Shown: piece after piece, positions 4,512 through 8,002 of the stretch
How positions within the stretch are numbered: the first letter of the stretch is position 1
How the letters are laid out: each line of letters starts with the position of its first letter
From: Clostridia bacterium
GTDB lineage: Bacteria; Bacillota; Clostridia; TANB77; CAG-508
Direction: 5' to 3'
DNA: 64,000 nt
Assembly: GCA_017437145.1 (NCBI GenBank)
Contig: JAFSBT010000005.1
Location: 10,017 to 74,016, forward strand
Position numbers and translations under genes: made by a program
The notes under the pieces: generated by a model
What the model saw: the letters and a program-made list of their open reading frames with translations, nothing else
What the model was told of the DNA's origin: nothing
Databases searched by the model: none

Positions 4512-5234
4512 ATGAGAACAATATATATAATAAAAATAGTATCCATAATTTTAATATTGAGTACGATTTTTTCATTTGTACCTAATGTAAGTTTAGCTAC
4601 TAATGGGAAAGAGGGCATAAATTTATTTGCAGATATTATTGATAAGTTAATTGTTATAATAAAAGACCTTGCATTAAAATTTTCAGAAATGTTTGCAAAT
4701 CTAAGTATAAAAGATTTAAGTATACAAGAACCAGAAGCAAATACTGCGTTTGCAGATATAGCAAAAGATTGTAAAGCAAAAATTTCTGGATTTAATTATG
4801 GAGATGGATGGGTCGGTGTTCCTTTTTCAGAAGAATCTAATTCAGCAAATAATCCTGCTTCAAGTAACAGACAGTCATCAATAATAGATTGTAGTGGATA
4901 TGTATCATGGGCATTATACAAGTATGGATGTGGCAAAGGAAGCGATTTATATAAAACAATATTTTCTGAACAAAGAGGAACAAAACAAATTCAACTTATA
5001 GTGGAAATGAATCCAACTTTATTTTATAAAGTTGGAACTTTAGGATCTTGCAATGTACAACGAGGTGATATATTATTGAAAAGTGGACATGTAGAAATAT
5101 TTAATAAAAAAAGTGGAAATACTTATTATTGTTATAATGCAGGAGAAAATAAAGATATACATGATGGAACAGGTAGTAAAGGAGACTGTAATGAGTATAC
5201 AAGCTCTTATACAGTATATAGAGTAATTAAATAG
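4512..5234 (+). CDS. secreted NlpC/P60-family (papain-like) cysteine peptidase-like protein
   Basis: Signal peptide. C-terminal domain has Cys (DCSGYVSWALY) and His (GDILLKSGHVEIF) in NlpC/P60 order. RBS aaggggga. Start chosen at MRTIYI. Confidence 0.55.
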   Translation: MRTIYIIKIVSIILILSTIFSFVPNVSLATNGKEGINLFADIIDKLIVIIKDLALKFSEMFANLSIKDLSIQEPEANTAFADIAKDCKAKISGFNYGDGWVGVPFSEESNSANNPASSNRQSSIIDCSGYVSWALYKYGCGKGSDLYKTIFSEQRGTKQIQLIVEMNPTLFYKVGTLGSCNVQRGDILLKSGHVEIFNKKSGNTYYCYNAGENKDIHDGTGSKGDCNEYTSSYTVYRVIK

Positions 5235-5322
5235 ATTTATAAAGTAGAAATCGATAGTAATTTTATTATTAATTTCTACTTTTGCAAAATTTTTTTAAAT
5301 AATTAAAAAAAGAGGTGATTTT

Positions 5323-6654
5323 ATGGAATGTTTTTTTATTAAAAGAAAATTTATAGCTATTTTTCTCTTAATAATATTGGTGACTACTATATGCCAACCG
5401 GTATTTGCAACTGATGTGCGAGTGGAGAGTGACTCTAGAACAAATAAGATATATAGTATATTAGAAATAATAAAAAATATAATAAAAGAAGTTGTTTCTC
5501 AATTAAGAAGCTTGTTATCTGGAGGCGATAAACCACAGGAAACCTCAAGTTTGGAAACAGAATTTTTAAAATTAGAAAATAATAAGAAAAATATGGTATA
5601 TAGTCCATTGTCGATAAAATACGCATTAAGTATGTTAAATGAAGGTGCAAATGGAAATACTAAAAAACAAATAGAAAAAGTTTTAGGAGATAAAAATTTA
5701 GGAAAATACAACAATATTGATAAAATATTATCTTTAGCAAATAGTGTTTATATAAGAGAAGAGTTTAAAGAAGATATAAAAGAAAGTTATAAAAAACAAT
5801 TAGAAGAAAAATACAATGCTGAAGTAAATTACGATGCTTTTAAGAATGCTGATAATATTAATAATTGGATTGAAAATAAAACATTTGGAAGAATAAAAGA
5901 TATGTTATCAGATGATATAGTTCAAGATTCAGAGAATATGATGGTATTGATAAATGCATTGGCATTAGACATGGAATGGGAAGATAATTTTGACGCTGAG
6001 GATACAGGAGGGGCAGAATTTTTCTTGGAAGATGGCTCTAGTATGAATGCAACTACATTAAAAAAGGAAACAAAAAGTGACAGTATGTCTTATTATAAGG
6101 ATGATGAAGTTACTGCTTTAAGAATAAATTTAAAAGAATACGAAAATACACAATTAGAATTTGTTGCAGTAATGCCAAAAGAAAAATTATCTAATTATAT
6201 AGAAGAATTTAATATGGATGATTTAGATAATGTTATAGAAAAATCTAAATTAGCATCTGAAACTAAAGCTGGATTATATGTAACAGTACCAAGATTTTCA
6301 GTTGAATATGATTTGAATTTAAAAGAGGATTTAATAAAATTAGGAATAACAGATGCGTTTAATTTTGAATTGGCAGATTTTTCTAATATGTCAAATAAAA
6401 AAATATTTGTTGGAGATGCATTGCATAAGGCAAATATTGATTTTACAGAAAAAGGTATAAAAGCAGCAGCTGCTACAGTTATATTTATAAAAGACGGAAT
6501 GGCATTGAAAGATGACGAGCCCGAAAGGATTATTATCAATAAACCATTCTTATATGTAATTAGAGATAAAGAAACAGGAGAGATTTGGTTTACAGGAACT
6601 GTTTATGAACCAAATTCTTGGGAAGAAGATAAAGCTAATTATGAATATAGATAA
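5323..6654 (+). CDS. serpin (serine protease inhibitor) with signal peptide
   Basis: Serpin hinge/RCL EKGIKAAAATVIF. C-terminal NKPFLYVIRD...GEIWFTGTV serpin signature. Internal serpin core motifs. Confidence 0.85.
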   Translation: MECFFIKRKFIAIFLLIILVTTICQPVFATDVRVESDSRTNKIYSILEIIKNIIKEVVSQLRSLLSGGDKPQETSSLETEFLKLENNKKNMVYSPLSIKYALSMLNEGANGNTKKQIEKVLGDKNLGKYNNIDKILSLANSVYIREEFKEDIKESYKKQLEEKYNAEVNYDAFKNADNINNWIENKTFGRIKDMLSDDIVQDSENMMVLINALALDMEWEDNFDAEDTGGAEFFLEDGSSMNATTLKKETKSDSMSYYKDDEVTALRINLKEYENTQLEFVAVMPKEKLSNYIEEFNMDDLDNVIEKSKLASETKAGLYVTVPRFSVEYDLNLKEDLIKLGITDAFNFELADFSNMSNKKIFVGDALHKANIDFTEKGIKAAAATVIFIKDGMALKDDEPERIIINKPFLYVIRDKETGEIWFTGTVYEPNSWEEDKANYEYR

Positions 6655-6680
6655 TTAGCAATAAAAAATTAAAAAACAGA

Positions 6681-6720
6681 GTCCTTTATGTTGTCAAAAA
6701 ACATAAAGGGTTCTTTTTTT
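6681..6720 (+). terminator. rho-independent terminator after serpin gene
   Basis: Hairpin cctttatgttgtcaaaaaacataaagg + T-run. Confidence 0.5.
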
Positions 6721-6985
6721 ATGTAATAGAAAATTTCTATTTTTTCGTTAATATGTTAGGGGGTGTCGAGGACGCCAACCCCTACAATTTAATTTTATTT
6801 TAAGTATAGGGTCAGACGACCATGGCTGCCCAATGTGACTAAAGTTCACTTTTTTTTGAAAATTAATTAAAAATACAGAATTTAACATAATATATCAAAA
6901 ATATTTACATAATTAATGAAACATGATATAATATAAAGGGGGAGAATTTAATTTTTTCTATTTTAATAATAAGGAAGTGATAGAT

Positions 6986-8002
6986 ATGGATATTAAAAAT
7001 TTAATGAAAATAACATCAATAATATTAATTTTTTTAATTGTATTTTCAATAATTCCAGTTATTAGTTATGCAACAGACAACTCAAAATCAGGATTTAGTT
7101 TTATTAGTGATTTTATAAAAAAAATAGGAGAAATAATTTCTTTAACAATTAGGACAATTTTTAATCCAAGGGAGAAAGATAATCCTGAGAAACTCACTAT
7201 AAGTTCAACATCCAAAACAATAGAAGTAGGTGATTCGTTTCCGTTAACTGCGAATAAAGTTGTAACATGGTCAAGTAGCAATTCTAGTGTTGCTGAAGTA
7301 GATAGGAAGGGAAATGTAAAAGGAAATGGAGCTGGAAAAGTAGATATAATAGCAACAACATCAGCTGGAGAAACAGCTAAATGTGTAGTAAATGTTGAAA
7401 CAACTACTGCGCTAGGAGGAGTATATAGCCCTAATAGTGATACTTCAGCAAAAACTGTTGGAACTTTCAAATCAAATATAAATAATAAAACTTTTAAAAT
7501 ATTAAGACAAACTGAAATTAAAGGATGGACTTATTTATGTAATAGAGCATCAAGTGCATGTATTGCAAGTGGATATTCAAGTGAAACAACAGATAATTTA
7601 ATAACTACTATGAATACATATGCTTCTAATTATTCTTATATACCATCAGCTGAAGAATCAGGTAATAAATATTTTGGAAATTATGGACTAAAGATAACAG
7701 AACGTAAAACAAATGATAGTACATCAACCACATTATTAAAAAATAAGCTTGTTAGTCAATTAACAAATGGTGGATACGCATTAATTCATTTCAATAAAGG
7801 TTTTAAAGGTGATAGTGGAACTGTGTGGAGTAATAGTAGTAATGAACACTGGGTTGCAATAATAGGATATGATGGCTCAAAAGTTTTCGTAGCAGATTCT
7901 AGGTCTAATAGTAGTAACACAACTGGATGGTATCCTATTAGTGAATTTACAAACAATGACAAGGGAACTATGGACTATGCTATTTTCATTAATGAAAATT
8001 AA
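6986..8002 (+). CDS. secreted protein with Big_2 (bacterial Ig-like) domain and C-terminal papain-like/C39-like cysteine peptidase-like domain
   Basis: Signal peptide. Big_2-like segment (VTWSSSNSSVAEVDRKGNVKGNGAGKVDIIATT). C-terminal Cys (CNRASSACIASGY) and His (EHWVAIIGYDGS). Confidence 0.5.
   Translation: MDIKNLMKITSIILIFLIVFSIIPVISYATDNSKSGFSFISDFIKKIGEIISLTIRTIFNPREKDNPEKLTISSTSKTIEVGDSFPLTANKVVTWSSSNSSVAEVDRKGNVKGNGAGKVDIIATTSAGETAKCVVNVETTTALGGVYSPNSDTSAKTVGTFKSNINNKTFKILRQTEIKGWTYLCNRASSACIASGYSSETTDNLITTMNTYASNYSYIPSAEESGNKYFGNYGLKITERKTNDSTSTTLLKNKLVSQLTNGGYALIHFNKGFKGDSGTVWSNSSNEHWVAIIGYDGSKVFVADSRSNSSNTTGWYPISEFTNNDKGTMDYAIFINEN

Follow-up and report, generated by a model that had tools for sequence, protein, structure and literature searches.

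A strain-variable locus of uncultured Clostridia in which a serpin and two putative cell wall hydrolases appear to share an N-terminal cassette

Described serpins and wall hydrolases, and the present locus

PinA and PinB, serpins of the Clostridium thermocellum cellulosome, carry the display module of the enzymes that surround them; in PinA this module is a C-terminal dockerin, which binds cohesin. A proposed role of cellulosomal serpins is to shield the enzyme assembly at the surface from proteases of both endogenous and exogenous origin (PMC8201313), and the siropins of Eubacterium siraeum (PF00079; MEROPS family I4) inhibit human neutrophil elastase and proteinase 3 (PMC5127057). Here we describe a locus of an uncultured Clostridia bacterium (contig JAFSBT010000005.1) in which a serpin gene stands between two genes, A and C, for putative Cys/His hydrolases, and in which all three products begin with a signal peptide followed by an amphipathic helix. 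The locus lies in a 64,000-nucleotide stretch of ~27% G+C DNA, hereafter the window, to whose positions all coordinates refer unless another contig is named. Its three genes are on the plus strand (A, 4512–5234; serpin, 5323–6654; C, 6986–8002), between clpC (1934–4213) and htrA (9003–10211), which are both on the minus strand. We tentatively propose, with a rough probability of 45%, that the helix is a lineage-specific tag for surface retention or assembly, and that the serpin guards the cell surface against foreign serine proteases.

With the siropins the window serpin shares a full serpin fold, an inhibitory-type hinge and an origin among gut Clostridia. It differs from such gut Firmicutes serpins in its N-terminus, which consists of a signal peptide and a helix, whereas 116 of its 118 nearest homologues begin with an apparent transmembrane signal-anchor. 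The resemblance to PinA and PinB is one of logic only, since the module here is an N-terminal signal peptide with a helix of 23–30 residues and has no known receptor; in the window serpin there was no Pfam match to dockerin. Tengpin of Thermoanaerobacter tengcongensis (PDB 2PEE, 2PEF and 2VH4; matched by the window serpin at E=2e-29) is likewise a serpin of the class Clostridia with a functional N-terminal extension. However, the tengpin extension packs on the serpin body, whereas the extension described here is also found on proteins that are not serpins and was seen in none of the nearest serpin homologues examined. For the flanking genes, the closest parallel in domain order is with CwlO, PcsB and RipC, FtsEX-controlled proteins in which a signal peptide is followed by an N-terminal helical regulatory region and a C-terminal Cys/His wall hydrolase. 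The coiled-coil domains of the CwlO/PcsB type are ~150–250 residues long and bind FtsX. In contrast, the proteins of this locus have a single helix of ~23–30 residues, which is also present on the serpin and on Ig-like proteins, and no ftsEX genes were found among the neighbouring genes.

A rare N-terminal cassette and its passengers

A sequence-only reading of this DNA had described three consecutive genes whose signal peptides end in A↓T(N/D). Its coordinates, quoted peptides and open reading frames are all correct, and the cleavage motif can be read directly in each gene: NVSLA↓TN in A (4512–4598), CQPVFA↓TD in the serpin (5323–5409) and PVISYA↓TD in C (6986–7072), all on the plus strand. 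Each signal peptide is 29 aa long, with a positive n-region (R2 and K8 in A), an h-region of 15 residues, Ser or Val at -3 and Ala at -1 (SLA↓TN, VFA↓TD and SYA↓TD). They are thus of the type expected for Sec export and would be cleaved by signal peptidase I after residue 29. In every case the signal peptide is followed by 5–12 polar residues, an amphipathic helix of 23–30 residues with a heptad pattern, and a polar linker that contains Pro and Gly; we refer to this arrangement as the cassette. The helices, again on the plus strand, are GINLFADIIDKLIVIIKDLALKFSEMF... in A (residues ~35–63; 4614–4700), KIYSILEIIKNIIKEVVSQLRSLL in the serpin (residues 42–65; 5446–5517) and GFSFISDFIKKIGEIISLTIRTIF in C (residues 36–59; 7091–7162). 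Their hydrophobic moments over 18 residues, muH(18), are 0.67, 0.67 and 0.66, respectively, which places all three (0.66–0.67) at the 99.9th percentile of 18-mers in the long open reading frames of the window. AlphaFold2 (AF2) models a helix at residues 34–63 of A and 34–59 of C, in both cases free, undocked and with a low predicted local distance difference test score (pLDDT).

A profile built from an alignment of nine N-termini gave only 14 matches at E<=1e-3 among 1.84 billion representative proteins, and the strong matches were all A-type or Big_2-type proteins. One further match, P0139 (E=2.2e-4), has the same signal peptide and helix in front of Big_7 and fn3 domains. The passengers of the cassette comprise an NlpC/P60-type hydrolase, Big_2 with NlpC/P60, Big_2 with a C39_2-like domain, Big_7/fn3 repeats and the serpin. 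Given so few matches and such varied passengers, we regard the cassette as rare and modular, occurring on at least five architectures. The cassette itself has no Pfam or NCBIfam match. A full-text literature search returned no description of a post-signal-peptide amphipathic anchor in Firmicutes; indeed, the word 'amphipathic' does not occur in a comprehensive review of Gram-positive surface display from 2018 (PMC5817068).

Membership of A and C in the cassette family is clear, at 81–99 bits against the family profile, and a 33-nt stretch of the signal-peptide DNA of C is 79% identical to that of A (D3). The case for the serpin is weaker but positive, and it is built on profile comparison and shared architecture. 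Against a first profile of the mature region, with 10 members, the serpin scored only 5.5 bits. After this profile was rebuilt with three extra members from the large search, the mature N-terminus of the serpin scored 13.1 bits against a profile that contained no serpin (p<=0.0005 against shuffled sequences, and p=0.0045 when the shuffling kept the hydrophobic/polar pattern). Its whole N-terminus scored 25.5 bits, compared with a maximum of 11.5 bits for the N-termini of 118 homologous serpins. Leave-one-out scores of undisputed members were 9.7 bits for A, 12.2 for P0139 and 0.1 for P0130, so that the serpin scores as well as or better than they do. Furthermore, among 3,091 open reading frames from the window and 44 related loci, mostly gut Clostridia and Bacilli contigs, the serpin was the best match to the serpin-free profile from outside the family (22 bits, E=1.9e-5).

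These comparisons bear on an alternative in which only A and C share a homologous module, and the resemblance of the serpin is convergent or compositional, in a proteome rich in Ile, Lys and Asn. In its favour, pairwise comparisons of the serpin helix with those of A and C were not significant (p=0.53 and 0.40), with scores at the mean of the shuffles; the smaller profile gave the low score mentioned above; and a DNA-level search for exchange of the cassette found only AT-rich matches of 17–39 nt. For the last reason recent gene conversion of the cassette was also rejected. However, convergence alone has to account for enriched-profile scores that equal or exceed those of undisputed members, for a serpin that beats shuffles keeping its own hydrophobic/polar pattern and that tops the non-family matches, for a hydrophobic moment at the very top of the distribution in the window, and for a signal peptide of the same length and cleavage site in all three proteins. 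We consider it an unlikely explanation. The profile, the shuffle tests and the ranking of open reading frames bear out the proposal of the sequence-only reading that the likeness extends beyond the cleavage site and is more than composition.

The serpin, its flanking hydrolases and the variation of the locus

The serpin (5323–6654, plus strand; 443 aa) is complete, as the sequence-only reading had held, with a PF00079 match of 245.8 bits against a cut-off of 27 (E=1e-72) in which residues 83–430 span profile positions 15–370 of 370. Eighty-eight solved serpin sequences match it at E<=1e-20, and the best of these include conserpin, neuroserpin and tengpin. Public proteins identical to products of the locus carry the tags IJN50_04645 and IJN50_04650 ('MAG: Clostridia bacterium', MAG being a metagenome-assembled genome). 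The public serpin model, P0002, is only 410 aa long: its start is an internal GTG, so that the signal peptide is lost (window 5323–5421). We rejected this model since a ribosome-binding site, AGAGGTG, stands 5 nt upstream of ATG 5323 and supports the form of 443 aa; the public start has probably been mis-called. The true starts of A and C are ATG 4512 and ATG 6986.

The hinge and reactive-centre loop through s1C, EKGIKAAAATVIFIKDGMALKDDEPERIIINKPF (residues 376–409; 6448–6549, plus strand), run from the hinge EKGIKAAAAT to INKPF. The hinge is intact and of the inhibitory type, with Glu at P17 (E376), Gly at P15 and small residues at P12–P9; Ile at P14 and Lys at P13 are unusual but are the norm in this family. 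Counting canonically from the hinge would place P1-P1' at Gly392-Met393, an assignment that is uncertain. The stretch from hinge to s1C has 34 residues, compared with 29 in the loop of alpha-1-antitrypsin. The sequence-only reading was therefore right that the loop is long, although by 5 residues and not ~4. Since the same stretch has 34–36 residues in all 117 homologues in which the loop can be delimited, its length is a trait of the family and not of this gene. Across these 117 homologues the hinge is conserved as E-K-G-[IV]-K-A-A-A-[VA]-T and P5-P5' is hypervariable, as one would expect of inhibitory serpins that follow a diversity of proteases. The family is also large, with at least 2,729 homologues at E<=1e-5, so the suggestion that bacterial serpins are uncommon does not hold for it.

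It is at the N-terminus that the window serpin departs from its relatives. In 116 of the 118 nearest complete homologues (55–67% identity) the N-terminus has an uncharged hydrophobic run of at least 18 residues (median 21.5), consistent with a transmembrane signal-anchor rather than a cleavable signal peptide. This run is followed by a low-complexity linker without a cassette-type helix; the maximum muH in these linkers is 0.42, against 0.67 in the helix of the window serpin. The window serpin thus bears the local cassette where its relatives bear a membrane anchor. That the helix occupies the place of the transmembrane anchor is our main argument that it retains the protein at the cell envelope. 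A lipoprotein reading of the serpin, with Cys24 as the modified residue, was rejected since TTIC is not a lipobox.

The serpin was probably acquired horizontally, and its family seems to move between genomes. In three homologue contexts (contigs L007/L008, L009 and L011) the serpin has no peptidase neighbour; that in L009 adjoins ABC transporters and that in L011 adjoins a GH25-LysM lysozyme. On L007 and L008, which are human gut contigs (Hadza and Nepal), a serpin of 67% identity, P0017, is carried on a mobile element (598–11414) with an integrase, HTH_17, HipA, a relaxase and TnpV, inserted beside a clpC-like gene. The proximity of both P0017 and the window serpin to clpC hints at a shared insertion hot spot.

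Gene A (4512–5234, plus strand; 240 aa) encodes, after the cassette and its linker, a Cys/His hydrolase domain (residues ~79–240) that is, to judge from its motifs and relatives, a divergent member of the NlpC/P60/CHAP superfamily of peptidoglycan hydrolases. Its own match to Pfam NlpC/P60 (PF00877) falls under the cut-off of 23 bits (15.2 bits, E=0.022). However, its 44%-identical paralogue P0128 passes the NLPC_P60 cut-off (24.7 bits), and distant relatives found by tblastn match NlpC/P60 over the same region at 23.5–35.8 bits. The catalytic residues C127 (IDCSGYVSW) and H193 (GHVEI) lie in motifs shared without change by 9 family members, and the DCSG and GHV motifs are diagnostic of the NlpC/P60 family. 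The catalytic domain is modelled by AF2 with a pLDDT of ~90, and the top fold matches of the model are MepS, RipB and phage CHAP or peptidoglycan hydrolases, all weak (E 0.009–0.06). In an hhalign comparison of the A family with one NlpC/P60 domain the His region alone was aligned, with a probability of 16%, and a sequence search of solved structures with the A-family profile gave nothing significant. Members of the A family link to NlpC/P60, CHAP and endolysin-like domains. Peptidoglycan hydrolases cut the stem peptides of the wall and are not expected to attack a serpin loop, and membership in this superfamily makes A an unlikely target of the serpin.

Gene C (6986–8002, plus strand; 338 aa) combines the cassette with a Big_2 domain and a C39_2-like Cys/His/Asp domain. 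Of this pairing, which the sequence-only reading had put as Big_2 with a papain-like peptidase, the first part is firm: Big_2 (PF02368) matches residues 71–134 at 42.1 bits against a cut-off of 22.8 (E=8.5e-11), and the region is modelled with a pLDDT of 84–93 (residues 71–140). The second part stands just below the threshold. Residues 172–305 cover nearly the whole Peptidase_C39_2 profile (PF13529; positions 5–142 of 143), with Cys (YLCNRASS), His (EHWVAIIGYD) and Asp (VADS) motifs, at a score of 22.8 bits that is narrowly under the cut-off of 24 (E=1.5e-4). Gene C has only two close homologues; precomputed annotation gives PF13529 for P0131 and P0132. A BLASTP comparison of C with the bona fide C39_2 domain of contig L016 was marginal (E=0.03), a sequence search of solved structures with its catalytic domain gave nothing significant, and PHROGs and NCBIfam searches returned no match for either A or C. 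A C39_2-like hydrolase is therefore a probable but unproven identity for C. The two putative cysteine peptidases that the sequence-only reading placed beside the serpin are upheld as papain-like Cys/His hydrolases, at the level of the superfamily for A, with a sub-threshold score of its own, and near the threshold for C.

The L016 domain belongs to one of two giant proteins seen in uncultured Clostridia, encoded at 2787–8384 of L016 and 2676–8411 of L019 and 1,866 and 1,912 aa long, respectively. In that of L016, an N-terminal membrane segment precedes Phage_lysozyme2, Peptidase_C39_2, Beta-lactamase2, Amidase_3, Phage_lysozyme and CHAP domains. Both giants appear to be multi-enzyme cell wall hydrolases, possibly with a link to conjugation or phage. 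The presence of both catalytic types in the L016 protein, together with their interchange behind one N-terminus as described below, suggests that A and C are peptidoglycan-type cysteine hydrolases, which we consider the most likely identity for both.

Rather than a conserved system, the locus is a strain-variable island. In a sister lineage (MAG SIG349; contigs L002–L004 and L013) the flanks are 88–94% identical to the window and the segment with the serpin and C, 5284–8077, is precisely missing. Contigs L002 and L004 align with the window up to 5283 and again from 8078, and retain an AT-rich hairpin followed by a T-run that lies 3' of gene A (5241–5282, plus strand; I16, with 20-nt arms of 85% complementarity) and forms the left edge of this insertion or deletion. 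All that the sister lineage has between clpC and htrA is a decayed A gene. This gene (10001–10640 of L002, equivalent to 8001–8671 of L013) is a frameshifted pseudogene, split into pieces of 145 and ~50 aa; at least 23 contigs carry it, so that the decayed allele is widespread. A closer strain, L001, has flanks of 93–96% identity and keeps the serpin with one substitution. The third gene of L001 is 90% identical through signal peptide, helix and Big_2 domain, and the C39_2-like domain is replaced by an NlpC/P60-like one (P0128); the alignment stops at 7396 and resumes at 8098, which makes 7397–8097 (plus strand) a swappable catalytic cassette of gene C. Elsewhere, contig L006 has two tandem A-like genes and no serpin, and the contigs of P0129 and P0130 are short and give little context.

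Putative transcription signals were also seen at the locus. A promoter-like site for A, TTGACA-17-TATTAT with a TG (4430–4458, plus strand), matches 11 of 12 consensus positions, which is a consensus match only. The serpin is followed by a strong intrinsic-terminator-like hairpin (6678–6714, plus strand) with a 15-pair stem and a T-run, and C is preceded by a second promoter-like site, TTTACA-17-TATAAT with a TG (6904–6932, plus strand; 11 of 12 consensus positions). Given the hairpin and promoter-like site between them, C is predicted to form a transcription unit of its own, separate from that of the serpin.

It is against this background that the interpretation of the sequence-only reading has to be set, namely that the three genes form a dedicated protease-inhibitor system at the cell surface, in which a cross-class serpin controls two neighbouring cysteine peptidases and a shared module gathers them together. 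The genes are indeed adjacent in two strains, the window and L001, they share the cassette, both neighbours keep their Cys/His motifs, and cross-class inhibition has been reported for serpin 1270 of C. thermocellum (reviewed in PMC8201313). However, the serpin is unchanged in a strain where the catalytic domain of the third gene has been swapped, a remnant of A persists without a serpin in the sister lineage, as do two A-like genes in L006, and C appears to be transcribed separately. None of the three homologue contexts has a peptidase neighbour, and the relatives of A are peptidoglycan hydrolases. A hypervariable loop is also more in keeping with diverse external targets than with a fixed partner, and its length, as a trait of the whole family, says nothing for a cross-class function of this serpin. 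Across the genomes compared we did not see the conserved co-occurrence expected of a dedicated cluster, and a terminator-like hairpin and a promoter-like site part the serpin from C. We therefore believe that such a system is very unlikely; the observation made by the sequence-only reading is confirmed, and its interpretation only partly supported.

A proposed surface tag and its meaning

Based on these observations, we propose the following model. The accessory locus between clpC and htrA holds one to three genes for predicted exported proteins with a common, lineage-specific cassette. The cassette would export its passenger by means of a signal peptide cleaved by signal peptidase I, after which the helix, seated in the membrane interface or bundled with further helices of its kind, would hold the passenger at the cell envelope. 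In this lineage the cassette takes the place of the transmembrane signal-anchor of the serpin, and the serpin would act as a suicide inhibitor of foreign serine proteases, from the host or from competitors, beside the surface enzymes, and not as a regulator of A or C. Most plausibly, by analogy, it protects the cell surface and the enzymes co-localised there from such proteases. The proposal made for cellulosomal serpins (PMC8201313) and the inhibition of host proteases by siropins (PMC5127057) both agree with a role in surface protection.

Several observations weigh against this proposal. The pairwise comparisons of the serpin with A and C leave room for convergence on an amphipathic helix. 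The helices have a net charge of only -1 to +1, and a HeliQuest-type discriminant mostly of 0.2–1.0, under the values of strong lipid binders. The helix and linker of A (4604–4851, against 436–698 of L001) cannot be aligned by blastn, so that this region has been replaced between near-identical strains, which is unexpected for a simple lipid anchor. The fold matches of A are all weaker than E=0.001, and over the catalytic domain of C the pLDDT is below 50, with no usable fold. Finally, the serpin does adjoin two cysteine hydrolases in two strains, which is compatible with a functional link. As to the alleles of A, there are two types of helix, GINLFADIIDKLI... and TDWGGLISKVLKAV..., and the pseudogene of the sister lineage has the second.

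The properties of the helix make coiled-coil assembly a serious rival. In that case the helix would be an assembly tag through which co-encoded proteins bundle into a homo- or hetero-oligomeric surface complex, with a logic like that of dockerin and cohesin, and the serpin would shield the complex from proteolysis. The helices have clear a/d positions over 3–4 heptads, a wide hydrophobic face, a high mean hydrophobicity <H> of 0.4–0.8 and a net charge near zero that is weak for lipid binding. Furthermore, cassette genes cluster at a single locus, the allelic helix types of A would fit partner specificity, and the cellulosomal serpin PinA offers a precedent (PMC8201313). On the other hand, the helix is only ~23–30 residues long, some genomes have a single cassette gene, which is decayed, and a bundle by itself would not hold the proteins on the cell. 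Overall, we see assembly of this kind as a somewhat improbable account of the helix. In another reading, which we rate as very improbable, the helix would be an N-terminal propeptide or an intramolecular chaperone or inhibitor, removed or displaced on maturation, and on the serpin it might stabilise the metastable native state as in tengpin. The helix does come directly after the signal peptide and before Pro-containing linkers (NPREKDNPEK in C), and the N-terminus of tengpin, a serpin among the solved-structure matches, traps the native state (cited in PMC8201313). However, in neither AF2 model, of A or of C, is the helix docked on the catalytic domain, and this speaks against a propeptide packed there; the same element is found on non-enzymatic Big_7/fn3 proteins and on unrelated folds, and other serpins of the family do without it.

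The neighbourhood of the locus supplies one further candidate target for the serpin. The product of htrA, 2.3 kb downstream (9003–10211, minus strand), is a membrane-anchored serine protease of the HtrA type (Trypsin_2 and PDZ) and a conserved neighbour of the locus. It is the nearest serine protease in every locus variant, and both proteins would face the outside of the membrane. Yet htrA and its neighbours are kept in genomes without the serpin, the serpin homologues examined sit in unrelated contexts, and the only link is proximity to a variable insertion site, so we think it highly improbable that the serpin targets HtrA and return to foreign serine proteases as its proposed targets. Other conserved neighbours encode a BofC-like protein (736–1326), a hint that the organism forms spores, and a small protein whose N-terminus resembles that of type IV pilins (10491–10943). 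In each of the variants seen (L001, L002, L004 and L006) the variable locus is directly followed, on its downstream side, by a conserved gene for a 97-aa protein (8138–8431), in which an amphipathic N-terminus (NKFKDIMCKIGKFVMEFVKK) precedes a transmembrane segment. Short GC-rich palindromic elements of the form TGTAGGGG...CCCCTACA are dispersed between the genes of this 27% G+C window (6759–6788, 12483–12520, 15665–15695, 15887–15915, 47518–47585, 50935–50990 and ~51806), one of them between the serpin and C, and look like REP-type dispersed hairpin repeats. Rfam at its gathering threshold matched nothing in the window, these elements included. Separate from them, a 59-nt stretch at 6721–6779 is repeated at 20637–20695 with 81% identity.

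Serpins of gut bacteria are under study as a means to modulate host proteases in inflammatory bowel disease (PMC5127057, PMC8201313). What this finding reveals is not a new inhibitor-protease system, and the serpin family was already known; its mildly surprising part is the anchor swap and the modular tag. To our knowledge, the positioning of gut-bacterial serpins on the bacterial cell has been largely unstudied. More speculatively, and with considerable doubt, we suggest that signal peptide and helix together are a new, lineage-restricted Gram-positive tag for surface display or assembly, a minimal helical 'dock' that can be grafted on unrelated passengers and that was placed on an acquired serpin instead of its transmembrane anchor, positioning the inhibitor beside wall hydrolases. 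The alleles of the helix might then be matched to particular partners, or serve to evade immunity or phage. The locus represents a natural anchor swap, from a transmembrane segment to a short tag common to wall-hydrolase-like and Ig-like proteins. If the tag is indeed an element of retention or assembly, it would be a compact means of display in Gram-positive bacteria and may be useful for surface-display engineering.

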